A stretch of 64,000 nucleotides of DNA from Pinctada imbricata (taxonomy: Eukaryota): the NCBI GenBank assembly GCA_033119305.1, contig VSWD01000002.1:9402974-9466973 (forward strand), written 5' to 3'. This document shows, piece after piece, positions 1,487-62,809 of this stretch (positions within the stretch are counted from its first letter, which is position 1; each line of letters opens with the position of its first letter). The translations under genes were made by a program, and so were the position numbers. Below the pieces are notes generated by a model. That model ran no database searches. It saw only the letters and a program-made list of their open reading frames with translations, and was not told the DNA's origin.

Positions 1487-2034
1487 CAAAGTAAACTTTT
1501 CATGTTTACAACACCTCCGCAACTGCTTTATTGAATTCCTTAATGCCATTCAGAAAGCAAGCACTGAAGGCTGTCCTCAATCAGAATTACAAGATGGCCA
1601 TCATTGGCTCTAATTGGCATCAATATATTTTCAAGTTCTCATCAATTGGCTGCCGAGAATTTCAGGAGAAGCAAGTATGGAAGTCTCCTACCAAAATTGT
1701 GAATTTGTCTTGATCAGTCAAAGGATCTGATTGGCATATATCCTCCACAAGTGCTTCACAAAAGCACAGAAATTCATCAAACCTGACTTGCTGTATAAAG
1801 GGCTTACTTGCTGTGTAATATACTTTTGAACTCAGATGAGAAATATACATGATGTATAACAACTTGGGCCTCTTTCTCCGATATTTACACCATATCTTTA
1901 TGCTAAGTATTTTGAAAGACAAATGATGAATATTTGATGGAACACAGCATAAATAGGGAAATTGCCTGAAGGAATATAGATAAAATAATCATGTGAGGAC
2001 CATATGATAACACTAGGTGGCAAATTCCCTTGTG

Positions 2035-2135: not shown

Positions 2136-2834
2136 GTTTTTGTTTTGCCTGTGAAGCATAGTGACACTTAGGGAACACTTTGTCCGTTGTCCGTCTGTCC
2201 GTCTGTCAAACTTGGATATCACACCCTATAAAAGTGATTCCTGAGTGTCGCTACATTTCGCAGGCGATACATGCATTCCTTGGAATGATTTTTTTATACT
2301 TGGTTTGATTTTCAAGCAGGGGTTATTTTTCGCAATAATTATTCAATCGGAAAAAAAAACTTATAAATTACCCCCACACTAAAATGGCCATGTTTACAGT
2401 CCATCATAGTACAGTGGATTGAATAACGAGGGTCATTCTTTATAATCTATATATAGACCTAGCAGACGGTGAGATGGTACATTTGGTTTTAAGACTTCGT
2501 GGTGGACCATACCCTGATCAACGGTCCCTTGATAAGTCAATATACGTCACAGAGAAAATGAGTGGAGAGGTAAGTTTACTCAGTCCATTGTCATCTGCTA
2601 AACCTGATCAGTACAACCATTCACCTACTGAAGTTTACTGTTAATTATAGCTGCTTGCTGTTACAGATAAGGTATGTATTTGATATATTTCACATGTGTA
2701 TTCCTTGTGACAAGACCCTTCTACACAAACTATAATTGACCCTTCCGATTTCGGGAAAAAAATGCAAAATGTCGTGAAGTCACAATGCTTATACCTCGGA
2801 CAAACAAGCTTCGATCCTCTGTCAAACATCAAAA

Positions 2835-3684
2835 TTGCAAATTTAGGTGAGGATTTTGTTTATTTTGTCAGGACAAATTCAGGCAAGGATTTTGTTATAA
2901 TGTCAGGACAAATTCGGGCAAGGATTTTGTTATATAATGTCAGGACAATTTCAGGTAAGAATTTTGTTAATATAATGTCAGGACAAATTCTGGTGAAGAT
3001 TTTGTTATTATATTGTCAGGACAAATCAAGTGAAGAATTTGTTATTAATATAATGTCAGGACAAATTCAGGTGAGGATTTTGTTATTATATTGTCAGGAG
3101 AAATTCAGGTGAGTATTTTGTTATTATATTGCCAGGACAATTTCGGGTGGGGATTTTGTCATTATAATGTCAGGACAAATTCAGGTGAGGATTCTGATAT
3201 TATAATGTCAGGACAATTTCTGGTGAGGATTTTGTTATTATAATGTCAGGAAAAATTCAGGTGAGGATTTTGATATTATAATGTCATGGCAAATTCAGGT
3301 GAGTATTTTGATATTATAATGTCATGGCAAATTCAGGTGAGTATTTTGATATTATAATGTCATAGCAAATTCAGGTGAGTATTTTGATATTATAATGTCA
3401 TGGCAAATTCAGGTGCAGATTTTGATATTATAATGTCATGGCAAATTCAGGTGCAGATTTTGATATTATAATGTCATGGCAAATTCAGGTGAGGATTTTG
3501 TTTATTTTGTCAGGACAAATTCAGATGAGAATTTTGTTATTATGATGTAAAGACAAATTCAGATGAGGATTTTGTTATTATAATGTCGTGACAAATTCAG
3601 GTGAGAACTTTATTAAAATGTCAGCACAAATTTAGGTGAGGATTTTTTTATAATAGTGTCAGGGCAATTTCAGGTGATGATTAC
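2835..3684. repeat. Minisatellite of about 38-41 bp (ATGTCAGGACAAATTCAGGTGAGGATTTTGTTATTATA), left block
   Basis: More than 20 tandem units read directly; the same unit resumes at 6120-6395. Confidence 0.9.
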
Positions 3685-6119: not shown

Positions 6120-6395
6120 ACATTTTATATAATGTCAGGACAAATTCAGATGAGGATTTTGTTATTATAATGTCAGGACAATTTCATGTGAGGATTTTGT
6201 TTTTATAATGTCGGGACAAATTCAGGTGAGGATTTTGTTATAATAATGTCAGGACAATTTCAGGTGAGGATTTTGTTTTTATAATGTCAGGACAAATTCA
6301 GGTGAGGATTATGTTATTATAGTGTCAGGACAAATTCAGGTGAGAATTTTGTTATTATAATGTCAGAACAATTTCAGATGAGGATTTTGTCCAAC
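6120..6395. repeat. Continuation of the 40-bp minisatellite, right block
   Basis: Same unit as 2835-3684 in the same orientation. Confidence 0.9.
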
Positions 6396-6427: not shown

Positions 6428-6790
6428 TGAAATTTATGGTCCACCTTTGGTTGCTTGTGGATGAATAAATTTATGGTCTACTTTTGGTTGCTTGTGGATG
6501 TATAAATTTATGGTCTACTTTTGGTTGCTTGTGGATGATAAATTTATGGTCTACCACTGGTTGCTTGTGGATGTATAAATTTATGGTCCACTTTTGGTTG
6601 CTTTTGAATTTATAAATTTATTGTCCACCTTTGGTTGCTTGTGGATGTATAAATTTTAGGTCTACCATTGGTTGCTTGTAGATGTATAAATTTATGGTCC
6701 ACCTTTGGTTGCTTGTGGACGTACAAATTTATGGTCCACCTTTGGTTGGTTGCTTGTGGAGGTATAAATTTATGGTCTACCAGTGGGAAA
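6428..6790. repeat. 37-bp minisatellite (TTTATGGTCTACTTTTGGTTGCTTGTGGATGTATAAA), about 9 units
   Basis: Direct reading. Confidence 0.9.
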
Positions 6791-7289: not shown

Positions 7290-8545
7290 TGTACTGTGAA
7301 ATCATTTATTATGTCCCCCATCAGAGAATAGGGGACATATTGCTTTGCTATTGTCGGCTGGTTGGTCCGTCGGTCTGTCAGTCTGTCCTCCACAACAGTT
7401 TCCATTAATTATCTCTAGAATGGATTCACATATTGAAATAAAGTTTGGTATACAGATACATCAAATGAAAATCTAGGTTAAGGGTATATCTGGGTGTGAT
7501 CGAAAAATTTTTGGCAGAGTTATGCCCCTTGGACTTAGAAAAATACCAAAATTTAAGTGTTTCTGTTCAATATCTCTAGAATGGATTCACATATTGAAAT
7601 GAAATTTTATAAACTGATAAATCAAATATAAATCTAGATTAAGTTTATATTTAGGTCCAATCCAACAAATTTTGACAGAGTTATGCCCCTTAGACTTAGA
7701 AAAATACCAAAATTTAAGGGTTTCTGTTCAATATCTCTAGAATGGATTCACATATTGAAATGAAATTTTATAAACTGATAAATCAAATGAAAATCTAGGT
7801 CAAGTTTTCTATTTAGGTCCAATCCAAAAATTTTTGACAGAGTTATGCCCTTTAGACTTAGAAAAATACACAAATTTAAGGGTTTCCGTTTAACATCTTT
7901 AGAATGGATTCAAATATTAAAACGAAATTTTATATACAGATACATCAAATGAAATTCTAGGTCAAGTTCATATTTTGGTCTGATAAAAAAAAATTGACAG
8001 AGTTATGCCCCTTGGACTTAGAAAAATACAAAAATTTAAAGTGCTTCCGTTCAATAACTGTGGAATTGTAACACATTTTGAAATGAAATTTTAGATACAT
8101 CAAACGAAAATCTAGGTCAAGTTCAAAATTGAGTCTGGTCAGAGAATAATGCCAGGTCACAGGGTTATGCCTCTTGACTTGGAAAAATATAAGAATTTAT
8201 GGGTTTCCATTCATTATCTTGCAATGGATTCACCTATTGAATTGAGATTTAGTTTAAAGATTCATCATGAGAAAATCCAGATCAAGTTGAGGTCCAGTCG
8301 AAAAAAAACCAACAAAAAAACAGAGTTATGCCCCTTTGACGTAGAAAAAATTACCCAAAATTAAAGGTTTTCATTCATTTTTACTGCAATGGAAGCATAA
8401 ATTAAAATGACATTTGGTATACAGACATATCTTATGAAAATCAAGACTGTGATAGATTCATTAATACAAATATAAAAACTTGCATTCATAATCAAAGAAG
8501 AAGTAGGGGGACATTTAATGTTTTACAATCATGACTTTAAATTTG
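7290..8545 (-). mobile_element. Pearl/Helentron-like non-autonomous element with the architecture 'hairpin - (GGTC)n microsatellite - about 6 tandem 160-bp satellite monomers'; inverted copy of 40040-41578
   Basis: Palindrome ATGTCCCC..GGGGACAT at 7305-7335; GGTCCGTCGGTCTGTCAGTCTGTCC at 7362-7388; 160-bp period from 7413 to about 8400; far end (about 8500-8540) is the reverse complement of the 40060 end of the other copy. Confidence 0.55.
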
Positions 8546-8672
8546 TTTTCGTGGTAGCTCAATTTTCATGGATGAGATTCAGTATTTTTGTGGGGACATA
8601 ATTTTGTGGATGCAAACCGTTGAAAAAAGATAAATATGGCAGAAAATACTAGTCTTTATAACAGTTATCTTT

Positions 8673-9610
8673 TTAACTCACCTGAGCAAAGCTCAAGTGA
8701 GCTATTGTCATAGTGCTCCGTCCGTCATCCGTCCATCCTCGTCATCCTGTGTAAACTTTTAACTAAGTTTTAACATCTTCTCTACAATGGCTGCACAGAA
8801 TTTCAAAGCACCTCACAGGAAGCTAGTTCTCAAAGTTCTCTACGAAGTTTGTGTTTTTCGTGCCGATCGGTCAACAAATATGGCCGCCGAGGGCTTTGGC
8901 TTATGCATTTTGGACTTCTCCTCTGCAACCGCTGCACAGAATTTCACGAAACCTTACAGGAAGTAAGTACTCAAGGTACTCTTCTAAGTTTGTGTTTTTT
9001 TGCCGATCGGACATCAAATATGGCCGTCCGTGGGCTCTGATTGGCTGACACATTTTCCACTTCTCCTCTGTGTAATTGTTGCACAGAATTTCACGAACCT
9101 TACAAGTAGCAAGTACTCAAGGTCTTCCACCAAGTTTGTGTTTTTCGTGCCGATGATGATCAACAAATATAGGCTGCCGAGGGTTCTGATTGGCTTACAC
9201 ATTTTGGACTTCTCAGAATTTCAGGAAACCTTACTGGAAGCAATTACTCAAAGTCCTCTACAAAGTCTTGCGTTTTTCAATCTGATCAGGTCAACAAATT
9301 TGGCCACTGAGGGCTCTGATTGGCTGATGCATTTTGGACTTCTCATTGCACAGAATTTTACAAAACCTTATAAGAAGCAAGTACTCAAGGTCACCTGCCA
9401 AGTTTGTGTTTTTCATGCAGATTGGTCAACAAAAATGGCTGCCAAGGGCTTTGATTGGCCAAGGCAGTTTCAACATTCTCTGTGACCACTGCATAGAATT
9501 TCATGAAACATTACAGGAAGCAAGTACTCTATTACCTCCACCAATTTGTGTACTATCATATTTCAGTCTGCAACTCAGATGAGTGGTGTGGCCCCCTTGG
9601 GCCTCTTCTT
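8673..9610 (+). mobile_element. Helentron/pearl-like element carrying about 5 units of a 150-bp tandem repeat ('H150' family); uninterrupted paralogue of 55903-58545
   Basis: 5' end TTAACTCACCTGAGCAAAGCTCAAGTGAGCTATT (imperfect hairpin), then a (GTCC)n-like tract CCGTCCGTCATCCGTCC, then repeats containing GCCGATCGGTCAACAAATATGGCCGCCGAGGGCTCTGATTGGCTGA, and a 3' hairpin GGCCCCCTTGGGCC at 9593-9606. Confidence 0.55.
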
Positions 9611-10040: not shown

Positions 10041-10533
10041 GTTTTAAGTGGCTCAATGCCGGAGTTGGACATGGAGTATCGGGTAAATTCGAACATTGTG
10101 TTGGAGGCAGATAGGCATTTCATAGACAGACACCGTGATGAATCGAACATTGTGATGACCGCAGATAGGCATTTGATAGACAGACACCGTGATGAATCGA
10201 ACATTGTGATGACCGCAGATAGGCATTTGATAGACAGACACCGTGATGAATCGAACATTGTGATGACCGCAGATAGGCATTTGATAGACAGACACCGTGA
10301 TGAATCGAACATTGTGATGGCCGCAGATAGGCATTTGATAGACAGACACCGTGATGAATCGAGCATTTTGGATCCCGGAGATCTTAGTACATATGACCTT
10401 AATGAAGATGGGATTACAGAAAGGGACCTCATAGATATTTTGGCCCAAAATGATTTTGACCTTTACACGAAATTAGGTGCTGAACAGCATATAGAAGAGC
10501 AACAGTCAATGGAAACAAATGAAATGAAAGAAG
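10041..10533 (+). CDS. Gene 1, upstream coding exon (phase 0 start, ends after 1 base of a codon); contains five 60-bp repeats encoding DESNIVMTADRHLIDRHR
   Basis: Acceptor TTATTCCAG|GTT at 10038-40; open frame; donor AAG|GTATTA at 10534. The leftover base G plus GT at 11386-87 gives an in-frame Gly joining to the big exon. Confidence 0.4.
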
Positions 10534-10565: not shown

Positions 10566-10900
10566 TGAAAGAATCAGGCAGGGGTGATACATCAAAATTT
10601 TTACACTAACTTTTTATTTACGTTTTGAGGTACAAATTAAAAATGAAATTCATTTCTGAAGTTAGCAATAATGAATGATAAAGGGTATGAAAAAAAATGG
10701 CGGGAAAATTTTGCTAAATGCATGTATAATTCAACCTAATTTAGTGCCAATTTTATAACTTTGTTACACCATCCAAGTATGTAGAAAATTCCTTCAGGAC
10801 GTATGTTTGGGGGTGATCTGAACATATATCGAAAGAGAAAAGTTTGGAAAAAATTAGAAGGTATTTCTACTCGACCCTGTACTAAAGTTGATTTATGCTC
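10566..10900 (+). mobile_element. About 330-bp MITE, copy 1 (right end replaced by a fragment of the H150 family)
   Basis: Near-identical to 20937-21290 over about 300 bp (AAGAATCAGGCAGGGG...CATCCAAGTATGTAGAAAATTCCTTCAGGAC...GAAGGTATTTC). Confidence 0.5.
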
Positions 10901-11095
10901 ACCTGAGTACTTTTTACAGTGTCTGTCCATCACATTCACAACATTCATAAACATCACATTCACAACATTACCACATAGATATATGCAGCAAGCAACTTCA
11001 TAGGAAGTCAGTACTTTCTTCATACTCAAGGTCATCTACCACAGTCATATTTTTCATGCAAATGTTATAACAGTGGTGGGTAATCTTGCAATGCA
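10895..11095 (+). mobile_element. Truncated solo unit of the H150 Helentron-like family, lying in the gene 1 intron
   Basis: GCTCACCTGAGTAC followed by a GTCTGTCCATC microsatellite remnant and one degenerate 150-bp unit (AGGAAGTCAGTACTTTCTTCATACTCAAGGTCATCTACCACAGTCATATTTTTCATGCA). Confidence 0.4.
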
Positions 11096-14300: not shown

Positions 14301-15165
14301 CGTAGGTCAAGAAGTCGATCTTCTCCTACCAGGAAAAGAGTTCACTCAAGATCTTTGTCAAGAAGTAGGTCTAGAAGAGATAGAGACCAATTTAAGTCAA
14401 GGTCAAAGTCAAGAAGTAGATCAATAAGGAGGATGGGCTACTCTAGATCCAGGACAAGAAGTAGGTCAAGAAGGAGGACGAGCTACTCCAGATCCAGGTC
14501 AAGAAGTAGGATGGATTACTCAAGATCTAGGACAAGAAGTAGGTCAAGAAGGAGGATGGATTACTCCAGATTTAGGACAAGAAATAGGTCAAGAAGGAGG
14601 AAGGACTACTCCAGATCTAGGACAAGAAGTAGGTCAAGAGGGAGGGACTACTCCAGATCTAGGACAAGAAGGAAGGACTACTCCAGATCTAGTACAAGAA
14701 GTAGGTCAAGAAGGAAGGACTACTCCAGATCTAGGACAAGAAGTAGGTCAAGGAAGAGGGACTACTTTAGATCTAGGACTAGAAGTATGTCAAGAAGGAA
14801 GGACTACTCCAGATCTATGACAAGAAGTAGGTCGAGAAGAATAGACTACTCCAGACCTAGGACAAGAAGTAGGTCAAGACGTCACTATGATAGAAAGACA
14901 AGACAACATAATAGATCCAGACCAAGAAGGTGGTCCAGGACTGTCAGCCCATACAGACAAAAAGACAGACGTAACCTCAGACACAGACATTCTGAATACA
15001 GAACAAAAAGTCCCGAATATGGACGCAGATCCAGAAGTCCAAAATATAGACCAAGGTCAAGAAGTCCAGATTACAGACCACGGCCAGTGAGCTCTGAGTA
15101 TGGACCTGCCTTGAGAAGTGATATGTATGGAGGCTTGATTACTGGAATGTCAAGGACATGTAAAG
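11386..15165 (+). CDS. Gene 1, large 3.78 kb coding exon. It encodes a low-complexity protein with CTD-like heptads, a K/E-rich segment, seven 47-aa repeats, a Gly-rich segment and a long RS/'DYSRSRTRSRSRR' domain. It looks like an SR-related nuclear protein; family not recognised
   Basis: 1,260-codon open frame in an AT-rich genome; polypyrimidine tract and acceptor TTTTCTTTTACAG|GTTCTG at 11385; donor AAAG|GTATGT at 15166; coding periodicity is maintained through the repeats. Confidence 0.8.
12440..13430 (+). repeat. Seven near-identical 141-bp in-frame tandem repeats inside the gene 1 exon (KVERKVLATKAARKAAPGAGGVHTSSSDSSDSESSDKDSSKDVKLTG)
   Basis: Direct reading; units differ by 0-3 nt. 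Confidence 0.9.
14440..14890 (+). repeat. About ten 45-bp in-frame repeats encoding (M/K)DYSRSRTRSRSRRR (the RS-domain core)
   Basis: Direct reading of the ORF translation and DNA. Confidence 0.85.
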
Positions 15166-17077: not shown

Positions 17078-17371
17078 GTAAGTATATGCGGAATTACATG
17101 TCCTAAGCTATTAATTTCTTTTGCAAATTGGACGTATCGCACCTTCTTTTTTATGCTGTTTGATCAACGATAGAAGGCATTTTGTAATTTTTCTGTCAAA
17201 AATTTTAACCATGCATGTAACTTTTGTATAGTTTGGTTATAAGGCTTTCATATTTCTCATGCATATTCCTTTTGGCAAATTTAAATAGACGTCTTTTCGG
17301 TATCAAGCTGTGACCTTATGACCCTTACCATGCTAGGAGTTTGACTTTGCCTACTCACAATAGAAATTTTA

Positions 17372-22839: not shown

Positions 22840-23600
22840 TATATAGTTAAGTCTGTCCGTCAGTGTGTCAAGATCTTGGTCATACTGTTGCATATAACTC
22901 AAATTTAAAGAAAACTGTTTGGGGCAGCAACTTGAAGCTATGTGATGAGATGAATCAAAAACCTGCAATCAAATTTCGACCTTGACCTTAATCTTACTGC
23001 AGAATTTGTGGTTTAGCTAATAGGGAGAAAACTAAGAGGAGAACGGACAAGTAACTTAAAATGACGACAAGACCTTGAGTTCTGACCTATAGTCACCTTG
23101 ACCTTGAAAATTTCGACCTACTTTTCAAAAACATTAACCATTGACATGTCTTCAACATTAAGGGGAAGGGATTTTATATTTCAGATGCAAATTTCTTGTG
23201 ATAAGACCTTTCATTTAAGACCTTGACTTTTGATCTTGAAGTTCGACTCCCTTTCCAAAAACATTGGCATTGGCTATATCTTTTGAACCGTAATGGGTAC
23301 AAATTCCGCATTTCACTAGTAGATGCCTAACAACAAGACCTTTTGATGAAATCTTGACTTTTGATCTAGTGGCCTTGACCCTTTAGTTTGGTTCACTTGT
23401 CAAAAACTTGAAACTTGAATTTATCTCTCGAGTGGTATTGGCTTTCATATTTCATTGTGACAAGACCTTTCATTTGCGATTGTGACCTTCACCTTGAACT
23501 TTGACTTATAATGTTTCAAATAAATTAAAATTGGCTATATCTCTTGAACTTCAAGGGATGGGACTTTTTGTATTCCTTTTGACAATACCTTATAAGTATT
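22840..23600. mobile_element. Pearl-like element: AGTCTGTCCGTCAGTGTGTCAAG leader followed by about 4 tandem repeats of about 170 bp rich in GACCTTGAC
   Basis: Leader matches the GTCTGTCTGTCCGTCACAC leader at 60245 and GTCCGTCTGTCCGTCTGTCAAAC at 2190. Confidence 0.45.
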
Positions 23601-28012: not shown

Positions 28013-31000
28013 GTTCCGTACGTAAAATAAAAGCACTATTGCCTTATCTCTAAAAAAAAAATAAAAGTATGGAAAAAATCAGGCTATCTTCTGCAGGAAG
28101 AATAAAAATGACAGATAGATTAAATAGGACAGATAGGTCTAGGTACTCCTTTTAAATAACGTACGTATAGTCCTTTCCGTCTTAACCGGTTTCAGATTTA
28201 CAAAATTGAACTATGTATGCATCATTTGTCTATGTTGACGACATCAACTTTTTATCGTTGGGATTTCCGCCTTAACATATCCGTAGACGACGGAAGATAC
28301 ATCGGCCAATAACAATTTCATACACAATATCATGGGCATGCAGCCATTTGTATGTATTTTATTTTTAAGTCGCAAACGGATTGTTAACTTTAAAGGTACT
28401 CGTTCCCTGGAAAAGGCTTAAATTGCTTCTTTTTTTATCAAATTTAGAGGATCCACTAGCCTAAAGGGATTCGAATCCCCAGAACCCCCCCCCCCCCAAT
28501 TAAAAATCCGTATATATAGAATAGAAAAGAATGAAATAAATAAATCAATACGTAAATCAGCATTTTTTTTAAATCCTGACCCCATTACGTTCTCTGAATC
28601 TTCCCATGAAATGAAAGCTTAATTTTTTTTCCTTTTCCGAAAAAAGGTACCCTTCGGTATATCATTTTTTTTAATAAATTAAGTGAGAGGTATCAAATAC
28701 ATCCGTTCATGATTAATAAAAATTTGAGCTACCCGTCACTCTATCCTCTATGGGCTGATCTATATCATATTTTCCCCGATATTTTCCCTTAAAAACAATT
28801 ATTTTTCACATCCTGTAAGACAAACAACCGATCAAACAGTTTAAGGACGATCCGTTGTACTTTACAAAGTGGTCATATCGGAGGCTGATCGTTCGCCCTT
28901 GGACATTTTCGTAACCTGATCAGGAATCTTTGTGTGAATGGGAGAATGGTTGTTTAGATGACAGATAAAGCGTCAAGTTAGATGAAATAGGTGTAGATAC
29001 TACAGACGTATGTGTATTGTAGATGTTGGAAATAAATTATTTCTGAGGGAAGTTTATAAAGTCCTAAGTTTCGAAAGGTAAGTTTTCTATGAACCAGTAC
29101 AAAGATTCCATAAATTGTATTGCATGTAAGTGAGGTCACGTCCGTCGTCTGTTCGTGGGTTGTGAATTTTTCACATTTTCGACTTTTCTTCAACGCTGAA
29201 CAGATTTTAATGAAACTTTGTAGATATGAAGTCTGAATACTTGTAGTACATACATATCCGTCGCCATACCATGAAGGTATCCTCTCTATGAGACTTCTTG
29301 TGAGTCGAAATCCAAGTACCTAACTACAAACTGAAAGCATCAGAATTATCTGTGTGGATGTTTCAAGATGTGTTGGGACGTTGACAGAAACGATTATACA
29401 CTGAGCAAAGGAGCTCGATGCCAACGACCCACAAGAGTATCCGCCCCTACTTTCCTTAGAGATGGAGCTCCTGTGTCACTGAGTAACGATTACTAAGGTC
29501 AATTATCTCTTACCAACAAAATTCTGGCGCCACGGCATGTCATGGATTTTCATGATTTTCTGCATATTGGGTATATATGATGTCCTGATTGCAAAAATTA
29601 AAGTTTGCGGTCAATGTGAGTTCCGGTTGCAGTGGCAACAAGACCAGTCTTTTGGTGCTACTTTAAAGACTGTGAAGTAACCTTTTTTTTTTGGATACGT
29701 TGTTACTATGGATATCATTGTAGCGGATATTTCATTTTCGTACTTTTTGCGCTCCTTTACCTCATTTCTTACAAAATGCACTCAGTTTTATGATAGATAT
29801 TACAGGACGTTTACTGTGCCCAGCCAAAGTAAGTAAAATTCAAGTCAAAAAGGAAGGAAAAGGTCATTTTATGTGATTTTTACCGTTTTCAGTGTCAATT
29901 ATAACTAAATGTAGACGTTTGTGAGAGCTATGATTGGTTATTATGAAAAGTAATGTCTCTTGAAATATAATGAAAGAAAATTGAAGCTGGGATCATTGAA
30001 AATTGAAGTTGTGATCATTGAAAATTGAAGTTGAGATCATCTCAATTTTAAAAACCGTTGCTATGTCAACTTTAAGCGTTTTAAAGGTTTGAATATACTA
30101 CCTTTTAACATTGATTTAACTCCAAATAAGTACTACTTATGACCATGAAAATATGCATATGAACTGACAAGACTCTTTCATTAAATTATATTACCTTGAA
30201 AGTTTCCAAGGTCATTGACTTGAAGTTCAAGGTCATTTCTTAACTCGGACTAAAAAAATTCGATAATCATGTGATTTTTCTTATTTTTGTCATAAAGTAA
30301 CTTTTTCTTTTTGAATTTTCCAATAACTTATATACATTTTGAAAAATTATGGATTTAAAAAAGAAATTTCCTGATTTCACTGACTTTTCATATTCAAATA
30401 CAATCTTTTTGTTCTGGCGAAAAAAAAATACGAATTTTAATTTTCATGCTTTCTTTCGTTGATATCCACACCTCAATTTCAGAAGGTCACAGAGTTGATT
30501 GAACTTAACTATCATATCCATTATTTTGTTGGATACAGCCGTTTGATTTGAGTCAAAAGGCCCTTTCTAGTTTGATCGTTTTTTTTTTTTCTACGAAAGA
30601 TCACAATTTTGGTAAAATCTCCTCAATTAAAAATCAGTGACCTTGAAAATACAACGCATGGCCTGCCTTGAACAAGTAACAAGATCATCTCTTCATTGAT
30701 TTGTCTCCAGTAGATATACGAACGAGGTTTTGTTTTAATATGCTTCGCAGGCGACACAAAAATTGTATCTGTCTGTCCTTTATAATCATCCAGGTCCACT
30801 TCTTAAGGCTGGGAAATGGTGACATTCTGGAAAATTTACATAGAAACATGCCCAGTATATATTGATTCATGATTAGAATACATGGTTGAAGGGGGGAAAT
30901 GTGCCAATATACGGTAAAAATATAAAGATTGAATAATCTCTTGTTAAGCAAAGATATTTGGACAAAATATCCAAATTATACCAGGCACGCGTGATCAAGA

Positions 31001-33194: not shown

Positions 33195-33750
33195 AAACAT
33201 GTGTTTAAGAAACACTAATGCCCCTGTCGGCATCTTTGTCTGTAAAAATTGTAAAATGGTCAAGCTCCAAGGTCAAGGTCACAAGGTCAAATATTTTGGT
33301 ATCCATGGAAATGTTTTGTTACAAGAATACACATAGAAAATATCAAAGCCCTATCCCTTACCATTCTCCAATTACGGCCAAGGTTAAAGCTTTTCAAAAG
33401 TAGGTAAAACTCCAAGGTCAAGGTCACAAGTTCAAAATGTTTGATATCCATCGAAAGGTTTTGTCACAAGGAATACACATGCACTATCACTTACCATTAA
33501 AAAATTAAAGTTATTCAAAAGTAGGTAAAACTCCAAGGTCAAGATCACAATGTCCAAATTTTTGGTATCCATGGAAAGGTCTTGTCACAAGAAATTCACA
33601 TGTGAAATATCAAAGCCCTATCCTTTACCATTCAGTTATGGCCAAGGTTTAAATTTTGCAGACAAACAGACAGACAAACGGACAGGACCTAAACTATATC
33701 CCCCCGAATCTTCGATTACGGGGGCATGAAAAGGGAAAAAATATAGGTGG
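33195..33750 (+). mobile_element. Pearl-like element: GTGTTTAAGAAACAC hairpin, about 3 units of a 140-bp repeat, a (GACA)n tract, then terminal hairpin TATCCCCCCG..CGGGGGCATGA
   Basis: Same monomer and leader as 48435-48700; its end mirrors the '(GACC)n + GTCCCC..GGGGGGCATA' end at 41480-41578. Confidence 0.5.
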
Positions 33751-39735: not shown

Positions 39736-40039
39736 GCATCTCCTGCTTGCATGCAACACCCGTTGCAGAAATGATTTTAAATCTCCTCTTAACATGCTTA
39801 ATTTCCAACTTGGCAGCATAAAAGTCAACATGAAAATAAATTTTGTCGAAAACTGTCATTTATTGAATGACGAATCAATAATAGACAAACCATAAAAAGG
39901 AGGGTCCTCAAATATTGTTTCAAATTTTGAGATATATTAAAAATTGATCCTACTTTAATCATGTTAAAATATATTAAGAATAATTACAACAACTGTGTTA
40001 TCGTAAATGACTTAAGTATTTTTGCTAGTATAAAAACAA

Positions 40040-41578
40040 CAAGTTAAAAGTCATGTTTGTAAAATGCCCCCCTGCCCCTTCTGTGATTAAAGTCTGTCAA
40101 AACTTTATACTTGCATTGATACAACCTATGGGGGTATAAAGTAACAGTTTCATTTCAATATGTAACTCCACTCAAGAGATATTGAACAGAAACCCTGAAG
40201 TTTTGGTATTTTTCAAAGTGCAAGGGGCATAACTCTGTCCAAATTTTTTTGATCGGACCTAAATATGAACTTGACCTAGATTTTCATTTGATGTGTCTGT
40301 ATACAAAATTTCATTTTTATATGTAACTCCACTCAAGAGATATTGAACGGAAACCCTGAAATTTTGGTATTTTTCGAAGTGCAAGGGGCATTACTCTGTC
40401 AAAATTTTGTTGATTGGACCCAAATAAAAACTTGACCTAGATTGTCATTTGATGTATCCATATACAAAATTTCATTTCAATATGTAACTCCACTCAAGAG
40501 ATATTGAACGGAAACCCTGAAATTTTGGGTTTTTTCGAAGTGCAAGGGGCATTACTCTGTCAAAATTTTGTTGATTGGACCCAAAGAAAAACTTGACCTA
40601 GATTGTCATTTGATGTATCCGTATACAAAATTTCATTTCAATATGTAACTCAACTCAAGAGATATTGAACGGAAACCCTGAAATTTTGGTTTTTTTTCGA
40701 AGTGCAAGGGGCATAACTCTGTCCAAATTTTTTCGATCGGACCTTAATACGAACTTGACCTGGATTTTCATTTGATGTGTCTGTATACAAAATTTCATTT
40801 CAATATGTAACTCCATTCAAGAGATAATGAACGGAAACCCTGAAATTTTGGTATTTTTTGAAGTGCAAGGGGCATAACTCTGTCAAAATTTTTTTGATCG
40901 GACCCAAATATGAACTTGACCTAAATTTTTGTTTGATGTGACTGTATACAAAATTTCATTTCAATATGTGAATCCACTCAAGAGATATTGAACGGAAACC
41001 CTGAAATTTTGGTATTTTTCGAAGTGCAAGGGGCATAACTCTGTCAAAATTTTTTCGATCGGACCTTAATACGAACTTGACCTGGATTTTCATTTGATGT
41101 GTCTGTATACAAAATTTCATTTCAATATGTAACTCCATTCAAGAGATATTGAACGGAAACCCTGAAATTTTGGTATTTTTCGAAATGCAAGGGGCATAAC
41201 TCTGTCCAAATTTTTTTGATCGGACCCAAATATGAACTTGACCTAGATTTTTGTTTGATGTGTCTGTATACAAAATTTCATTTCAATATGTAACTCCATT
41301 CAAGAGATATTGAACGGAAACCCTGAAATTTTGGTATTTTTCGAAATGCAAGGGGCATAACTCTGTCAAAATTTTTTGATCGGACCCAAATGTGAACTTG
41401 ACCTAGATTTTTGTTTGATGTGTCTGTATACCAAATTTCATTTCAATATGTGAATCCATTCCAGAGATATTGAACGGAAACTGATGTCGCGGACCGACCG
41501 ACAGACCGACCGACCGACCGACCGACAGCGGCAAACCTATATGTCCCCTCTTCTTCGAAGGGGGGCATAAAAAGTAAA
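40040..41578 (+). mobile_element. Pearl/Helentron-like element: about 9 tandem 161-bp satellite monomers, then a (GACC)n microsatellite, then terminal hairpin TATATGTCCCCTC..GAAGGGGGGCATA; inverted copy of 7290-8545
   Basis: Monomer is the reverse complement of the 7413-8400 monomer; the 5' end at 40060 contains ATGCCCCCC, which is inverted relative to the 3' hairpin. Confidence 0.6.
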
Positions 41579-47360: not shown

Positions 47361-48434
47361 AGCTCCATGAAATCTTGTCAAATTTGGTAATTATCTCGGT
47401 ATACATATTGGCATACATAATGGGTAAAGCTGTCTTGTTTTGTGATGTTGGCAGTCTTTCAATCGCAATCCAGAATGTAACTGATGTTTCTTGAAAAAGG
47501 AATCTCGTATGCTTTTGTTCATTCCAATAGCGAACTAAGATCTTCAATGATGATTTCAGCCGTACAAATGTCATTTCTATGTAGATCTAGCTATTTTTAA
47601 AAGAAATGACTGTAATATTTTTTTTCTTTCCGTCGACTTATAGACAAAACCGATGCACAAACAAAATATGGACTATGTTTTGTTCCTGCTTCGGGTTTTA
47701 CCTATCCATCGATAAAATAACAGCGGTTTCTTATGATTTAATGAAATAACTATTAAATTATCTGGTCTATTTTGCAATTGACGTCATTTTAGCATTGTTG
47801 AATTGAAATCAAGTTCAAAACTGGCAACGTAACATTTGAACAGGCCAAAAGTAGCGGCGCTTGACGTTCGTAACGTCATAAATAGGCGACATTGTCTATG
47901 CAGCTATAGATAAAATTTCGATCCGTACGTTTGTGAAGGCGTTCTACAGACACTACGGAGATAACTAAATTATTCAACTTCGTGAGGTGAGCTAAAAACA
48001 GTATCATCAGCATGTATACAACTGAGCTGAAATTAGCAAATTACAAATACCCGTAGGGGGCGCTATCAAAACACTCGTGAAGGTTAAAGCGATCACGTCA
48101 CAGACCCCCATGTGATATGGCATTACTATATCTATATAATACATATGTCATCCATAACATTTTCAAATATACTGTGCGGTTTCATACTTATCTATCATGA
48201 AAGATAGGATGCATGCATTAATATTATAAAACATGTCACAAAGGATACCAGTGGCGTAGCTGGGACAAAATTAAAGGAACCAATGCTTTTCGTGAGGCTT
48301 ACAGTACACATTATGTTAAGGGCAGAGTTGGACAAAGCATGAGAAAGCTTCGCAAATATTTACATTCGAGAGTTTTCTATTACTTCCAAAAGTGATGAAA
48401 TTCAAAGGTACTTATTCAGATTTAATAAAGCCTG

Positions 48435-48700
48435 TGTTTGTGAAACACGAATGCCCCCGGTGGCATCTTAGTATAAACTTCATTTTCTGTTAAGTATGGG
48501 AAAGGTCAAGGTCAATTTGGTATCAATGGAAAGGACTTGTCACTAGAAACACACATGTGAAATATGAAAGCCCTATCACTTACCATTCAAAAGTTATGCC
48601 CAATGTTAAAGTTTTTGAAAAGTAGGTCAAAGGTCAAGGTCAAGGTTAGGAGGTCAAAAACTCTATCACCTTCCTAGGCTATTAACTGTTTTCTAATAAT
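48435..48700 (+). mobile_element. Truncated pearl-like element (GTGTTTGTGAAACAC hairpin plus about 1.5 units of the 140-bp monomer)
   Basis: Same leader and monomer as 33195-33750. Confidence 0.45.
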
Positions 48701-55849: not shown

Positions 55850-55932
55850 GTAATTACTTCTTTGACTGTACTGTCTGCTTCTTTAATCTTTATTTTTTTT
55901 AACTCACCTGAGCGAGGCTCAAGTGAGCTATT

Positions 55933-56519
55933 AGAGAGGTTGAGCAAACCCAACTTGTACGTGTACGAGAACTTGTACGTGTATTTACACGGTATCTGTT
56001 TACACGTTGACGTTATGCGGTTGAGCAGATGTCACAACGCGTACTGGTACGTGTAAATCGTATATACGTTTTTGTGATGTAATTTATCTTTTGTTTACGA
56101 CTGCGTATTCGTCAAGACATGGCATCTAGATTCTATAGGTAAGGGGCATTCAGCAAAGACGGTGAATTAAAATTTCTAATCTAAGTAATCGGATATATAT
56201 AACATCAAAATTAGACTTCAAGAATAAAATTTTGGGTCACTTTGAGGGTTCTTCTTTAAAATATGATACATTTTATTTGCAATTCCTTCTAATATACAAA
56301 AAGGACATACGTTCCGGAATAAATTGAATATAGGTTTTCATAGGTTATCTGCATTCAGTTGCTTATAAAATCTACAAGTAACCATAAACGTGTACTTACC
56401 GCTTTACACATTTTACCGAACGTGTAACGTGTAGCACAGGTTCTTGGAACGCATAATGTGATGACGCCATTAATAACTTTTTGACGTACACGTACAAGTA
56501 CGATTTGCTCAACCTCTCT
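55933..56519. mobile_element. Nested MITE of 587 bp with TIRs of about 36 bp (AGAGAGGTTGAGCAAA..CTTGTACGTGTACG) flanked by a 3-bp ATT target-site duplication
   Basis: Insertion splits GAGCTATTGTCATAG (intact at 8698-8712) into GAGCTATT[MITE]ATTGTCATAG; a 3-bp TSD suggests the PIF/Harbinger superfamily. Confidence 0.6.
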
Positions 56520-57214
56520 ATTGTCATAGCGCGCCGTCCGTCGTCCGTCGTTGTCGTCCGTCCGGCGTAAACTTTTAACATTTTCGACATCTCCTCTGCA
56601 ATTGCTGCATGGAATATCACCGAACCTTACAGGAAGGAAGTACTCAAGGTCCTCTACCAAGTTTGGGTTTTTCATGCCGAACGGTCAACAAATATGGCCA
56701 CCTAGGGCTCTGATTGGCTGACACATTTTCGACATCTCCTCTGCAACCGCTGCACAGAATTTCATGAAACTTTACAGGAAATAAGTAGTCAAGGTCCTCT
56801 ACCAAATTTGTTTTTTTTTTGTGCCGATCGGTCAACAAATATGGCCGCCGGGGGCTCTGATTGGCTGACACATTTTCGACATCTCCTCTGCAACCGCTGC
56901 ACAGAATTTCATGAAACTTTACAGGAAGGAAGTACTCAAGGTCCTCTACCAAGTTTGTGTTTTTTTTTCTTTGTGCCGATTGGTCAACAAATATGGCCGC
57001 CGAGGGCTCTGATTGGCTGACACATTTTCGACATCTCCTCTGCAACCGCTGCACAGAATTTCATGAAACTTTACAGGAAGGAAGTACTCAAGGTCCTCTA
57101 CCAAGTTTGTGTTTTTTTTTTTTTGTGCCGATTGGTCAACAAATATGGCCGCCGAGGGCTCTGATTGGCTGACACATTTTCGACATCTCCTCTGCAACCG
57201 CTGCACAGAATTTC

Positions 57215-57654
57215 ATGAAACTTTACAAACCGGCAGAGCACGGACTGTATTACGCATGCCCTCTTTTTATATCCATTTACATATTCATCTGTGTCTCTGG
57301 GGCCTCTGCGTTTCGCGGTCTTGTTTGTGTGATGTCATCTTACAGTGAGGAGGTTGTTTTACACCACATTTGTACGTTCTTCGAGACCTCTGGGTAATTG
57401 GAGAAGTGAGAGGGTTGTGCGCACGTAATCCAGGATAACCACACCATTTGCTACTTGCGTGACAGATGGCCGTCCAAAGTCGGCACCGGTTACCCATTGG
57501 TCTCGTCGGTTTATGTGTAGTCTTTTGTGTTTGATGTTTACATGTCGTGTGTCTCTTTTCCGTCTCGTGCTGTACTCGTCTTTTGTGTTTTTGCATCGGG
57601 TGTTTTGGTGTTTTACTGTTGATGCTGCAACGGGGTCTTGTTGGAGATCTCCTC
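57215..57654 (-). mobile_element. SINE-like F1 element inserted into a 150-bp repeat unit, with about 6 bp TTTACA duplicated at both junctions
   Basis: Unit sequence ..GAAACTTTACAGGAAGG.. is split into ..AACTTTACAAaccggcagag[element]cttctTTTTACAAGAAGGAAG.. Confidence 0.5.
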
Positions 57655-60209
57655 CCTTCTTTTTACAAGAAGGAAGTACTCAAGGTCTTCTACCAAGTTT
57701 GGGTTTTTCGTGCCGATCGTTCAACAAATATGGCCGCCGAGGGCTCTGATTGGCTGATACATTTTCGACATCTCCTCTGCAACCGCTGCACAGAATGTCA
57801 TGAAACTTTACAGGAAGGAAGTACTCAAGGTCCTCTACCAAGTTTGTGTTTTTCGTGCCGATCGTTCAACAAATATGGCCGCCGAGGGCTCTGATTGGCT
57901 GATACATTTTCGACATCTCCTCTGCAACCGCTGCACAGAATTTCATGAAACTTTACAGGAAGGAAGTACTCAAAGTCCTCTACCAAGTTTGTGTTTTTTG
58001 TGCCGATCGGTCAACAAATATGGCTGCCGAGGGCTCTGATTGGCTGATACATTTTCGACATCTCCTCTGCAACCGCTGCACAGAATTTCATGAAACTTTA
58101 CAGGAAGGAAGTATTCAAGGTCCTCCAACAAGTTTGAGTTTTTCGTGCCGATCGGTCAACAAATATGGCCGCCGAGTGCTCTTATTTGCTTCTCTGCAAA
58201 AAAACCACTGCACAGATTTTCATGAAACTTTACAGGAAGAAAGTACTCAAGGTCTTCCACCAAGATTGTGTATTTTGTGCTGATCGGTCAACAAATATGG
58301 CCGCCGAGGACTCTGATTGGATGACACATTTTCGAAATCTCTTCTGCAACCATTGCACAGAATTTCACGAAACCTTGCAGCAAGCAAGTACATAAGGTCC
58401 TCTGCCAAGTTTGTGTTTTTCTTGTCGATAGGTCAACAAATATGGCTGTCAAGGGCTTTGATCTGTAGAAGTATTATTTGTGACTTTTAACCCTTTGTCT
58501 GCAACTCAGGTGAGCGATGTGGCCCCCTTGGGCGCCTCTTGTTATAAGAAGTTAATTTGTGAGAATTCTTTATTCCACAATTGAATTTTATTCTGCTTTA
58601 ATACTGCAGGAAGCGAAGGAAAAACTACAATGACATCACAGTATTCTAATCTTCCTCAATGTAATGGAACATAAAAATGAAGAAGAAAAAATGAAAAAAA
58701 TGAAAAAGAAATGGAAAAGGAAAAAAAAAAAAGGAAAAAAGAAAAAGAAAAGAAAAGAGGAACATATCTCAAATATGAACTGATAAACATAACTCTTTAT
58801 TAGAGAAAACGAATTCAAATTCATTTTAAATAGAACGTTGTCCGGTCTCTCTTGAACAGTTCCAGAAAACGGCATGCATGTCTGTAATCGATCTTTATAT
58901 TTAGCCTTGAATTGATGGATATCATTTTCAGAGATTAGGGCTACAAAGAAGGGCTTAGATTCTTTAATGTATTATATCATGCGATGATCAGCAACATCTA
59001 ACGACAAAGAAAAAGGCGGACATTAAAGGGGGATATCAAAAATATTTTCAGTATTTCTTCCGTAATATTTTCAATCAAAATGACACCATTACGACAGATC
59101 ACAATGTGATTCTATTGATTATCAACGTAATATGCATGGCAATTAACATGATTAACTCAAATTTGAAATTAGTCAATCGGGATTACCGCCTATTACATAT
59201 TTCATCCATTACTTCGTTCATTTTTATAGAAACTTGAAAAAGAGAATGTTAATTCCTCGTGAATAAAATGCAAAATTACATCGCGTTTTCTTTCATTCAA
59301 GGTTTTTGTTCACAGGCTCAAGTCGCAAAATGTGATTCTTTCACTTGAAACAGTATCTATTTTCAAGCCTAATGACATCTTTAACTTTGGCGTATCAAAA
59401 TATTCTTAAGACTCGTCTCATTGTTTGAGATACGGGATTAATGTCTATTCAATACATTCCTTTCTTTTTATTCTGGGTTTAGTCCGTCAAGGTTCAAGTC
59501 AGGTAATATACTTACATAATAATGCTTCATAATAAGAAATTCTAAGGAAACAAGGTCAAGGAGTAAATAAATAGAAGTTAAACAAAAATATTTTTCAAGA
59601 TTAGTCTGAAATATTTATGTCCTACACAAAGGGATGGTACACAGGGACTTATCGCGCTTCTCAGTTGCTTAATGTACTCTTGGTTATTAGCCCATAATTC
59701 AAAAAGCAACCGGGAAGCGCGATAAGCCCCCGTGGGATGGAAATATCTCCATCCGACTTGACCGCTATGAGAGAAGCATCGCAATAATTTCCATAGATAT
59801 GGTGACAACCTCATTAACACAGAGATAATGACAAAACCCAGACAACTGGCATGTGAAACTCGAGATACCGTCACTGAAATCAAATACTAGGAAGTTATAA
59901 ATTTTTGCTGAGCAAAGAGATTTCTGTTTTATTAAGGATACGTAGATGATCAAACAGTCGTTTTATGCAACTTATTTACATCAAAGATGATCAAGGAAGA
60001 ATTTTTTTCCATTATGACAAGCTGAGTAAAATAGCTTGAGAGGCAAAAAGATGTATCGTCATGGAAAATCTACAGAATCATAAATAAACAGAGATTTCTT
60101 TGTTACTGAATTCGATCTAGATTATTTTGACCCCACCCCCACCCTCCGATGAAAAGGAAGTTCTAAATTTTATGTTTTCTTCCAGTTTGTGTTAATTTTG
60201 CTTATTAGT

Positions 60210-60780
60210 CCCCTATCGGCTCGCCGGAGGGGACTTATAGTTTCCACCCCGTATGTCTGTCTGTCCGTCACACTTTAGTTTTGCAGACTTTTTTCGCTGT
60301 CGTTGCATATATTCATAACTCATTTTGGAATATCTCAGTGTGATACAGATCAAGTATGAGTTTTGTCCCGATTGACCTATGCTTACAAGAGGTATGGCCC
60401 TTGGACTTAACAAATGTTATGAAATTCTCAGTTTTCCGGACTTTTCTTCCATGGCATTGCAGATATTGAAATGATATTTTATATGTGAATACATCTTAGT
60501 GTTATACAGATCAAATTCGAGTTTGGTTTTAATTGACCCATTATTACAGGAGTTATACCCTTGCACTTAACAAATTGTTTGAAATTCTGAGTTTTCCGAT
60601 CTTTTTTCTCCATGTTATTGCAGATACTGAAAAAATTATACGTGAATACATCTCAGATTAAGTTCGATTTTTTTTTTCGATTGACCACATTTGACAGGAA
60701 TTATTGTCCCTGGACTTAGCAAATTTCATGAAATTTACAGTTTCCGGACTTTTCTTGGCTGTTGTAGATTACAAATATGG
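60210..60780 (-). mobile_element. Pearl-like element: hairpin AGTCCCCTATCGGCTCGCCGGAGGGGACT, (GTCT/GTCC)n tract, then about 3 tandem 150-190-bp units; related units also at 61200-61470
   Basis: Direct reading; the leader matches the 22852 and 2190 leaders. Confidence 0.45.
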
Positions 60781-60814
60781 ATAATGACCATATCCCCATA
60801 TACAGCACATAATC

Positions 60815-60990
60815 GATGATTCAGAAAATCACAAACCGAAGGCATACAAAATCAGGATAAAATAGGAACAAGAGCAAACAAACAAAACACCTCCACACAT
60901 GAAAAGAAGCGAACTCCCGAAATGGAAGTGAGACCAGGTGCCCAGGAAGAGTCAGCATCTCCTGCTTGCATGCAACACCCGTCGCTTCAA
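60815..60990 (+). mobile_element. SINE-like repeat (same subfamily as 39550-39735)
   Basis: About 90% identity by eye over 170 bp. Confidence 0.55.
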
Positions 60991-62809
60991 TTCGGTTACT
61001 TCTATTTTGGAAGATACAAAGTATCATCTTTGGTTGGACGATACAAATGGTCTATGACAGAATATCATTCACCATTCTGGAGAGTGGGACATCATAGTGT
61101 ATGACGAGTTCCCCATATCGACCGTAGAACTTCCTCAGTGACGATGTTAGTCGGTCACAAACGTATCCCTGACTGAGAAGCTTATCTGCAAGACGCCTAG
61201 CTCTCAGAATAAAATGTGTATATTTAGTATTGCTCTGGCATATAGAGCTGAGTTTTGGTATGTACATAGATACTGATGTTGATATTGAGCTGATTTTGGG
61301 TATGTAGATACATTATAGTATGATATACATTAAGTTGAAGTTTGGTTTTAGTTACCTGTTCTTACAAAAGGTGTGGCCTCTTAGGAAATTTCATGAGATT
61401 TTCTGTTTTCCGGACCTTTTATAATACACATATTGAACTTATGTTGATATGGGATTCATCTTTTGGTGTAAGTACAGGTCAAGGCAGAGTTGCAGGACAT
61501 GGATTAATGCCGGTAGGGGACTTATATCGCTTGTGATTCATTTATTTATTTCCTTTGTTTGCACTTTTTTTATTTATTCATGTATTTATTTGATTTGTTT
61601 TTGGTTTCCAAACATATGAAGAATTGTCATATTTTTGAAGCATGATGAAGTATGATCAAGAAAGCCCATCTTTCATTCATTTGCAAAAATAATGTCCCTT
61701 TGAAATTTGTTCGTGTTTTGTAGTTGAACAGCTCATTATTGCGATGGATCCTTTCATCTCTTCAAATAAACTTCTAAACCATAATCTGGATTTGTAATGA
61801 AAACGGTTTAGCGATTTATTATCACAAATACCAAATTATTATAGAAATAACACAGATAAAACATGAGTTTAATTGTTTAAAATTGTTAATTTCAAATGCA
61901 ATAAACATTTCGTTTCAAATCTAGATGATATTACAGAGATGCACAGATCAACAAGAACGCTAACGTTTCACGCTTATCAATTGACTACTCTTACAAAGAT
62001 GAGCATTTGAATTGTGCAAAAGCGTAAATCCGATAACAAAGGCACTTAATACATTTTAAAATTAGCTGAAAATTCTATGAAATATTGATAATTTTTATTA
62101 TAAGGACGAAAAAAAAACATAATAAATAATTTATATTCGGGTTTAATCCATTTCTTACATTCAAAGTGTTATTACTATAAACTTTGTTATGCACAAAGAA
62201 GATCTCAGTTTGTAGCCCGGCATCATATCAATCAATTCTTACTATTACCAAGCATAGCTACTTCACAAATGTGTAACCAAAAAGTAAGAAAATAGGCCGT
62301 TATTAACACAAAAAATAATGTAAATATATGTCAAATGGACATTCGAAAGTTTGTGCTCTTTTGGCTGAAGCAAGATCATGATCAGTGAATTGAGAAGTGA
62401 AACCTAATTTCAGACCACATCAGAATCTAGTCTTCTCTGAAGAGATCTGGACAGAACCTGTCATAGAGTCCTGTAATTATTTACTGTTGTACTATGTGTA
62501 TTAGTAATTAGCAAGCTAGAGGTGGGACCAGCTGCCCGGGAGGAGTAAGCATCCCCTGTTTGGATAGCCGCAACCGCCGTCGATGTTCACGCAGGAAAGT
62601 AAAGATATCTAAAATACATGCGCTGCCTGAGGTTATGTCTATATAGAAAGTGCTATGGCGACCATGTCAGGGAAAGACATTCAAAACACTTACTGTCAAA
62701 CCCCTCGTAGAGAATTGTCTTTCAGAAATAACAATATGCAACACGATTAAAAAATTAATTCAACATTGTGAAATTAATTAAAGAAAATTATTTTTCTCAT
62801 TGTTGACAG

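Follow-up and report, generated by a model that had tools for sequence, protein, structure and literature searches.

Here, we analysed a 64,000-nucleotide stretch of the Pinctada imbricata genome (assembly GCA_033119305.1, contig VSWD01000002.1, forward strand, positions 9,402,974 to 9,466,973; hereafter the window) and found about 15 copies or fragments of a satellite-carrying unit, which together make up about 13% of its bases (sum of coordinates, nested insertions excluded). These units are very probably non-autonomous Helentron-type transposons (HINEs), of the kind known as 'pearl', DTC84, MgE and Cg_HINE. With 35% G+C, the window is AT-rich; it is eukaryotic and contains many tandem arrays. 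Seven of the units are complete (F1a, F1b, F2a, F3a, F3b, F4 and F6), and these share one order of modules: a T-run, a 5' subterminal inverted repeat (subTIR), a complementary inverted repeat (IR) that lies 3-13 nt further on and closes a hairpin with it, a microsatellite of the GTCY/GTCC type, 9 to ~200 bp of spacer, the tandem monomers (0-13 per element), an inverted 3' subTIR, and a tail of 25-45 nt that ends in T's. A small palindrome usually follows the 3' subTIR. The orientation of the monomers relative to the ends, determined with TRF and nhmmer, is constant in all copies and across related families too.

Module by module, this layout matches the published HINE definition, with a 3' palindrome that is convincing in three of the families. 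According to Thomas, Vadnagara & Pritham 2014 (PMC4067079) and Vojvoda Zeljko et al. 2020 (PMC7492417), a HINE consists of a 5' subTIR with an IR, a GTCY-type microsatellite, a variable spacer, 140-180-bp repeats in a fixed orientation, a 3' subTIR and a 3' palindrome, with T-rich ends and no target-site duplication (TSD). In the DINE-1 and Cg_HINE type, the IR lies 1-22 nt downstream of the 5' subTIR, and HINE-type elements are known from oysters, clams, mussels and flies. An earlier sequence-only reading of the window had described a recurring unit of hairpin, GTCY microsatellite and tandem array and had likened it to 'pearl' elements and non-autonomous Helentrons of bivalves. The unit is real, each locus named in that reading is present close to where it was placed, and the likeness is borne out. 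The Helitron hallmarks proposed there as a check (5' TC, 3' CTRR, insertion between A and T) are absent: the ends have the forms T(n)ATGYCCCC..., T(n)A[AG]CTCACC... and ...CTCTTSTT, and there is no conserved CTRR. These hallmarks of canonical Helitrons are the wrong test here, being one that Helentrons should fail.

Recurrence and pairing of the element ends

The modules recur far more often than expected. Phased GTCN tracts occupy seven loci (0.23 expected in first-order Markov simulations), and the strict pattern of at least three GTCN units matches five times in the window (0.09 expected); F3 copies additionally carry out-of-phase GTCC/GTC tracts. The end word ATG[CT]CCCC[CGT] occurs eight times, against about one expected, and all eight occurrences lie at element ends. 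Similarly, the three occurrences of AGTCCCCT in the window are all at the ends of a single element (F4), and CTCACCTGAG, with at most one mismatch, is found at both ends of each 145-bp carrier and elsewhere only in an unrelated 38-bp array. SubTIR types among the window ends include ATGCCCCC, CTCACCTGAGC and GTGTCGCCTGCG. By the HINE convention, the end with the hairpin and microsatellite, previously called 3', counts as 5'. Its hairpins had all been described as G-rich, which does not hold for the 145-bp family (CTCACCTGAGC / GCTCAAGTGAG).

Families were defined by self-BLAST, nhmmer monomer profiles and shuffle tests, and their monomers fall into three unrelated superfamilies: A (161 bp), B (121-135 bp) and C (145 bp). 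No similarity was detected between the superfamilies, with z < 3.4 in all other shuffle tests. At least four unrelated monomers had been claimed before. The array at 60210 is related to the 161-bp family and the array at 22840 to the monomer found at 33195 and 48435, and their monomers measure 157-161 bp and ~135 bp, respectively, instead of 170-190 bp; the lengths given as 160, 140 and 150 bp are corrected to 161, 121-134 and 145 bp. The list of copies was also incomplete, as it lacked those at 1508-1880, 17239-17346, 29136-29232 and 30739-30757.

In all seven complete elements, the subTIRs form pairs of 9-12 nt (15 nt in the related contig L005, introduced below) that are perfect or contain one mismatch. 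Their placement is asymmetric, 2-10 nt from the 5' end versus 25-45 nt from the 3' end. In an all-against-all comparison, every 5' repeat paired best with the 3' repeat of its own element, as exemplified by the T-variant of F1a and the C-variant of F1b, the 12 nt of F4 and the 15 nt of F6. DNA folding of six 5' hairpins beside microsatellites gave z-scores of -3.4 to -4.3, and the F6 hairpin in L005 reached -5.3. At the other end, the palindrome is clear in F2 (GTGTTTC..AAACAC; z = -2.6 to -3.5), F3 (GGCCC..GGGCC) and F6 (GCATTCC..GGAATG), and in F2 the stem is kept while the loop differs between the two copies.

Related elements were found in other contigs. One metagenome scan yielded a single contig, L001 (42% G+C), in which a GTCC microsatellite and F3-like units come after an F3-type hairpin identical to that of the window. 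Contigs L002-L005 were fetched as DNA around homologues of a reverse transcriptase-like pseudogene in the window; L002 and L003 were uninformative. L004 and L005 (ENA sample ERZ26168041; 37% G+C) have further short repeats in common with the window and carry F3-, F2- and F6-type elements, including an F3-type element in L004 with nine monomers that are ~76% identical to those of the window. The pseudogene itself (43950-44600, +) is frameshifted and stop-interrupted (…GTNCAPLVADLFLY…RYPDDILTIDN…) and has more than 900 homologues of 55-66% identity on long eukaryotic contigs in ENA. A bacterial and archaeal genome collection contained no match to the F3 end pattern or the F1 monomer pattern, and a viral collection contained none to the F3 end pattern.

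In the F3-type element of L004, the 5' repeat, the IR and the 3' repeat have changed together, to GTGCACCTGAGC, GCTCAAGTGCAC and CTCAGGTGCAC, with CT replaced by TG in the 5' subTIR and AG by CA in both the IR and the 3' subTIR. Across sources, the F3-type hairpin shows two compensatory pair changes, and 95.5% of cells pair, versus 9-36% when the partner is slid. That 5' repeat, hairpin partner and 3' repeat change in coordination, both here and in a related organism, lends support to the idea that the transposition machinery reads these words. A single C·A mismatch (CACCTG vs CAAGTG) is present in the F3-type hairpin of five out of five copies from three sources (window 8677-8701 and 55903-55927; L001 416-449; L004 13034-13069; L005 14584-14619), while the 3' subTIR is a perfect complement (CAGGTG). 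The mismatch therefore looks conserved and not accidental.

Insertion sites and alternative explanations

Similarity between copies of the same family ends sharply at the element ends, the flanks are unrelated, and copies occur in both orientations. As judged from these sequence comparisons, the copies are independent insertions and not duplications. Segmental duplication of the two 161-bp carriers was considered and rejected, their flanks being unrelated. Five F3-type 5' junctions (two in the window and those in L001, L004 and L005) read as unrelated flank, T(5-11), A[A/G] and subTIR, and four F3-type 3' ends terminate at CCTCTTSTT. All junctions are T-rich with T-runs of variable length, and these runs aside, nothing is duplicated across the element junctions. 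The elements have no coding capacity.

The lack of a duplicated target bears directly on the idea that the units are cut-and-paste MITEs (miniature inverted-repeat transposable elements), i.e., deletion derivatives of terminal inverted repeat (TIR) transposons. A DDE transposase would then mobilise them by binding their inverted repeats, and a short target duplication of AA/TT would be left behind. The inverted repeats close to both ends, the small size and the absence of coding capacity would all fit a MITE, and the T/A runs at the ends were taken as a putative 'AA' TSD in the older literature. However, the subTIRs are asymmetric and do not lie at the extreme ends, the T-runs vary between copies without any duplication of host bases, and the extra IR, the microsatellite and the 3' palindrome are HINE features. 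Moreover, Thomas et al. moved the whole class to the Helentrons (PMC4067079). We consider a MITE origin highly unlikely.

Still less probable is that these loci are non-mobile satellite fragments scattered by segmental duplication, ectopic recombination or reintegration of extrachromosomal circular DNA, so that the 'ends' would be conserved junctions. Arrays that change in place and several end-less fragments would fit such scattering, but in seven copies the two specific ends are both present, correctly ordered and oriented, and similarity is lost sharply outside them. In addition, the ends covary, the same end type carries unrelated arrays, and the array-less F6 has both ends and is conserved in another organism. 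RNA-mediated repeats, either tRNA-derived short interspersed elements or hammerhead 'retrozymes' whose monomers are transcribed, self-cleaved and reverse-transcribed, resemble these loci in the size of their dispersed 120-160-bp tandem units and are hardly credible here, as no array has a hammerhead or other Rfam match at E <= 1, there is no tRNA-like head, poly-A or simple-repeat 3' tail or long terminal repeat-like direct repeat, and the ends are inverted repeats.

If the units are Helentron-type elements, they would encode nothing themselves and be copied in trans by a Helentron Rep/helicase(-endonuclease). This enzyme would recognise the structured ends on single-stranded DNA and, with no target duplication, insert the copy at T-rich (TT) sites. 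The array would be carried as cargo and, after insertion, grow and shrink in place by unequal exchange or slippage. One end type can hold unrelated arrays, and related arrays can sit in diverged ends. Several observations weigh against a Helentron-type origin. No empty site was found within the window, and the TT target and the exact termini are inferred only. No Rep/helicase ORF of an autonomous Helentron is present in the window or linked to these ends; for the HINEs of Crassostrea gigas, no autonomous partner could be tied to the elements either (PMC7492417). The 3' tails of F1 and F4 fold no better than shuffled sequences, and the palindrome is not convincing there. Finally, the covariation comes from four distinct sequences only, and 36 of 500 shuffles reach the observed pair count.

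Element families, their arrays and neighbouring features

Superfamily A comprises three complete elements. F1a (7306..8549, +) has its 5' subTIR ATGTCCCCC at 7311-7319, its IR AGGGGACAT at 7330-7338 and its 3' subTIR GGGGGACAT at 8506-8514, with a microsatellite at 7353-7388, an array of ~6.5 monomers at 7398-8445 (71-89% identical) and a T-rich tail to ~8549. F1b (40032..41573, -) lies in the opposite orientation, with a 5' subTIR ATGCCCCCC at 41560-41568, the same IR (AGGGGACAT) at 41541-41549, a microsatellite at 41491-41526, an array at 40148-41481, a 3' subTIR GGGGGGCAT at 40064-40072 and a tail to ~40032. Its array contains 8.3 monomers that are 89-98% identical and shows dimer-block duplications. 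The sequence-only reading had already recognised the regions 7290-8545 and 40040-41578 as inverted members of one family, and their ATGYCCCCC / GGGGGRCAT ends agree with its description. F4 (60203..61545, +; 157-161-bp monomers) has a 5' subTIR AGTCCCCT at 60207-60214, with AGGGGACT serving as both IR (60228-60235) and 3' subTIR (61515-61522), a microsatellite at 60255-60270 and monomers at 60332-60788 and 61313-61456. It is split by an unrelated nested insertion of ~520 bp (~60790-61310); its previously assigned extent, 60210-60780, stopped short of the ~61545 that the element reaches. The monomers of F4 and F1 are distant relatives (~65% identity, z = 12.9), and all modules of the two families are related, though their ends have diverged. 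A motif, GCATCTCCTGCTTGCATGCAACACCCGTCGC, recurs at 39684-39775, 60940-60990 and ~34575-34602, as a 46-bp unit in two copies near F1b and also inside the F4-nested insertion, and is another interspersed repeat family.

In superfamily B, only F2a (33197..33731, -; 121-134-bp monomers) is complete. It carries a 5' subTIR ATGCCCCCG at 33719-33727, an IR CGGGGGGAT at 33698-33706, a microsatellite at 33656-33687, an array at 33257-33634, a 3' subTIR AGGGGCAT at 33218-33225 and a 3' palindrome GTGTTTCTTAAACAC at 33201-33215. The ends of F2 are related to those of F1 (72% over 75 bp), whereas the monomers are unrelated. F2b (48432..48665, -) is a 5'-truncated copy that has lost its 5' subTIR and IR and retains ~1.5 monomers (48502-48664), a 3' subTIR CGGGGGCAT (48451-48459) and a palindrome GTGTTTCACAAACAC (48434-48448). 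F5 (22847..23510, +) is degenerate: it has a microsatellite at 22851-22870, a spacer of ~200 bp and monomers of ~135 bp at 23078-23508, which are 60-71% identical to F2 monomers in matching orientation. The hairpin previously assigned to this copy is not there. A diverged F2/F5-type monomer stands alone at 17239..17346 (+) with no recognisable ends nearby, and a short monomer fragment of this type lies at 2679..2724 (+). In L004 (~11394-11480), two F2-type elements are joined head-to-tail: the 3' repeat CGGGGGCAT, the palindrome GTGTTTCACAAACAC and ACCTTTATTAATTT of the first are immediately followed by ATGCCCCCAGATCGAATGATCAGGGGCAT, which is the second element's 5' hairpin. Rolling-circle read-through, or insertion at the end of an element, would be expected to give such a pair. 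A tandem array elsewhere, with 35 copies of a 22-bp unit TTATCTAAACACGACCTTGACA, shares the word GACCTTGAC with B-type monomers.

Superfamily C is represented by F3a to F3e, whose 3' repeat has the consensus CTCAG[A/G]TGAG. F3a (8671..9608, +) is complete, with a T-run and 5' subTIR CTCACCTGAGC at 8677-8687, an IR GCTCAAGTGAG at 8691-8701, a GTCC-type microsatellite at 8720-8747, an array at 8768-9551, a 3' subTIR CTCAGATGAG at 9574-9583 and a palindrome GGCCCCCTTGGGCC at 9590-9603. F3b (55897..58541, +), also complete, has its 5' subTIR at 55903-55913, IR at 55917-55927, microsatellite at 56536-56563, array at 56578-58464, 3' subTIR CTCAGGTGAG at 58505-58514 and palindrome at 58521-58533; the array of ~13 monomers is interrupted by an insertion at ~57231-57661. 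F3c (1508..1880, +) is a degenerate 3' part with two diverged monomers (1508-1734), a 3' subTIR CTCAGATGAG at 1831-1840 and what remains of a GGGCC palindrome and a CTCTT tail; it adjoins a 27-bp array at the window start. F3d (10897..11061, +) is a 5'-end fragment composed of GCTCACCTGAG, a decayed microsatellite and a partial monomer (10989-11061), and F3e (29136..29232, +) retains the IR end, a GTCC-type microsatellite (29140-29155) and the first 64 bp of the monomer.

Two other repeats are nested in F3b. Between its hairpin and microsatellite lies a TIR element of 587 bp (55933-56519) with perfect 16-bp TIRs (AGAGAGGTTGAGCAAA / TTTGCTCAACCTCTCT) and a 3-bp ATT target duplication, as seen by comparison with the uninterrupted F3a sequence GAGCTATTGTCATAG. 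For this genuine cut-and-paste MITE, F3b and F3a are a clean pair of filled and empty sites. The second insertion, a ~430-bp repeat within a monomer (57231-57661), is flanked by TTTACA and has further copies at ~34773-35186 (-), 43016-43282 (-) and 49501-49785 (+); all four share the ORF-like stretch SRITTPSATDVADGRPKSAPITHWSRWFMCS. Exon-like ORF pieces at 52726-52930, ~53530-53640 and ~55750-55850 resemble, by eye, the ligand-binding domain of GABA-B/metabotropic receptors (e.g., GKDPLYIGGFFPMQDGAWDGSGILPAAQMAIEDVN), and the location of F3b between these GABA-B-receptor-like exons is probably an intron. A database query with one of these exons returned three fragments.

F6 (~2137..2290, ~155 bp, +) belongs to a further end family and is complete without an array. 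What had been called a leader-only remnant at 2170-2240 is part of this element, in which both ends are present: a CpG-decayed 5' subTIR GTTTTGCCTGTG (2142-2153), an IR GTGACAC (2161-2167), a microsatellite (2189-2208), a 3' subTIR CGCAGGCGATAC (2259-2270) and a palindrome GCATTCCTTGGAATG (2273-2287) followed by a T-run. The words of the family are GTGTCGCCTGCG at the 5' end (CpG-decayed in the window), GCGACAC in the IR and CGCAGGCGACAC at the 3' end. The window element is 81% identical to the copy in L005, another organism. Several differences between 2142-2270 and L005 15024-15129 are C-to-T changes at CpG (TCG to TTG; GCG to GTG; GACAC to GATAC), a pattern that fits the decay of an old insertion through methylation. 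A solo 5' end of the family, GTGTCGCCTGCGAAGCATA, lies at 30739..30757 (-).

The arrays of F1a and F1b begin at the same monomer phase (model position 116) beside the microsatellite, which argues for one ancestral array. In F3b, central monomers are 97-99% identical, compared to 80-90% for monomers at the edges; in F1b, each monomer resembles the second next at 96-97%; and in F1a, the older copy, there is a gradient of decay toward the 3' end. These patterns indicate, at the level of sequence, that the arrays expand and homogenise in place. That such elements seed satellite DNA is a hypothesis in the literature.

The most conserved boxes of the 161-bp monomers across F1 and F4 are AGGTCAAG, ACAGAGTTATGCCCCTTG and ACATATTGAAATGA. 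The box ACAGAGTTATGCCCCTTG is present in every 161-bp monomer, and its core TTATGCCCC(T) is identical in word and orientation to the element's 5' subTIR TTATGCCCCCCTT. The 5' end of F1b aligns to this box (TTATGCCCC..CTTCGAA; p ~0.02, uncorrected). Among 22 comparisons of element ends with their own monomers, those labelled LF in F1b (p ~0.02) and RF in F4 (p ~0.023) stood out, and neither was significant after correction. The box might be an internal Rep recognition or initiation site, through which the rolling-circle machinery itself, beyond unequal exchange, would lengthen, shorten or 5'-truncate arrays; we regard this as improbable. If true, transposition would lead to the birth of satellites by a direct mechanism, and an origin of the monomer from the element's own end would be favoured.

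The window contains a number of other features. An uninterrupted ORF of 1270 aa (11391-15203, +) has four unusual parts: heptads like those of the RNA polymerase II carboxy-terminal domain (CTD; SPAYSPVSPFYSPTSPAYSPTSPAY), seven near-identical 47-aa repeats (a 141-bp array with 98% identity), an RGG box, and an RS/RSRSR domain that is very long. Each of the repeats contains LATKAARKAAPGAGGV, and the first, KQLATKAARKSAPASGGV, differs very little from histone H3 residues ~18-35 around K27. A database protein search with the N-terminus of the ORF returned RPB1 CTD matches only and no orthologue, and exact-protein look-ups with two ORFs of the window gave no match. Arrays of shorter period are found at 1-1485, 2838-3682, 6128-6390, 6430-6781, 10089-10367 and 24321-25088. 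They include a 27-bp unit in 55 copies (96% identity) that extends past the window start, 38-bp and 37-bp arrays, and a 54-bp array within a 210-aa ORF. A hairpin at 16165-16256 (both strands) matches Rfam mir-219 with 31.5 bits (E = 0.005). As the gathering score is 54.5, it is no more than a possible candidate for a microRNA precursor.

Comparison with known systems

The closest parallel is Cg_HINE of Crassostrea gigas (PMC7492417), which has the same module order, GTCY/GTCC/GTCK microsatellites, T-rich ends without TSD, copies in both orientations and an intron location. Its groups 1-3 differ in that all modules are related, that ends are related and repeats unrelated, or that everything is unrelated. 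These three kinds of relationship are also seen in the window, where F1 and F4 are related throughout, F1 and F2 by their ends only, and F3 and F6 are unrelated to the others. The sequences differ from those of the oyster: the 161-bp monomer has no similarity to a Cg170-like CL1 monomer. In addition, two arrays (8 and ~13 monomers) exceed the oyster average of 3.6, and F1 and F4 are without a clear 3' palindrome. None of the window subTIR strings occurs in the Cg_HINE supplementary text (PMC7492417), except by chance inside Cg170 monomers, and searches of the literature by sequence string gave nothing relevant.

The DINE-1 elements and HINEs of Drosophila, mite and mosquito, described with their Helentron partners (PMC4067079), likewise place the 5' subTIR a few nt inside its end and the 3' subTIR tens of nt inside, and they have an IR near the 5' subTIR, a microsatellite, optional central repeats and, as in F2, F3 and F6, a 3' stem-loop. 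They have a variable T-string at the boundary, which is shared here, and a preference for TT targets. However, the window subTIRs are shorter (9-12 nt versus 12-15 nt), and there is no sequence similarity. The pearl family (CvA/CvE/CvG of Crassostrea virginica; Gaffney et al. 2003), DTC84 of Donax trunculus and MgE of Mytilus galloprovincialis were compared by architecture, not by sequence. They too combine flanks, ~160-bp core repeats and a tetranucleotide microsatellite, their ACGG/ACTG motifs being the reverse complements of GTCC/GTCA, and have inverted motifs that are subterminal at one end and arrays whose length varies between copies; in contrast to the reading adopted here, they were originally taken for MITEs with an AA TSD. 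Canonical Helitrons, the presumed rolling-circle relatives, also lack a TSD and have a 3' hairpin, ~11 nt before the end, whereas the window elements have subterminal inverted repeats in place of the 5' TC, 3' CTRR and A/T target.

In genome annotation, HINE is the label under which to mask these loci, and they should not be reported as satellites or as structures of a novel type. Within 64 kb of genic DNA, the window combines three unrelated arrays with four kinds of ends, one copy that has no array, nested insertions and arrays that grew in situ. It is a compact, well-resolved example of Helentron-type cassettes that carry, exchange and locally expand satellite-like arrays. Set beside the systems above, the window elements are further members of the well-described HINE kind, and the current understanding of these elements is unchanged.

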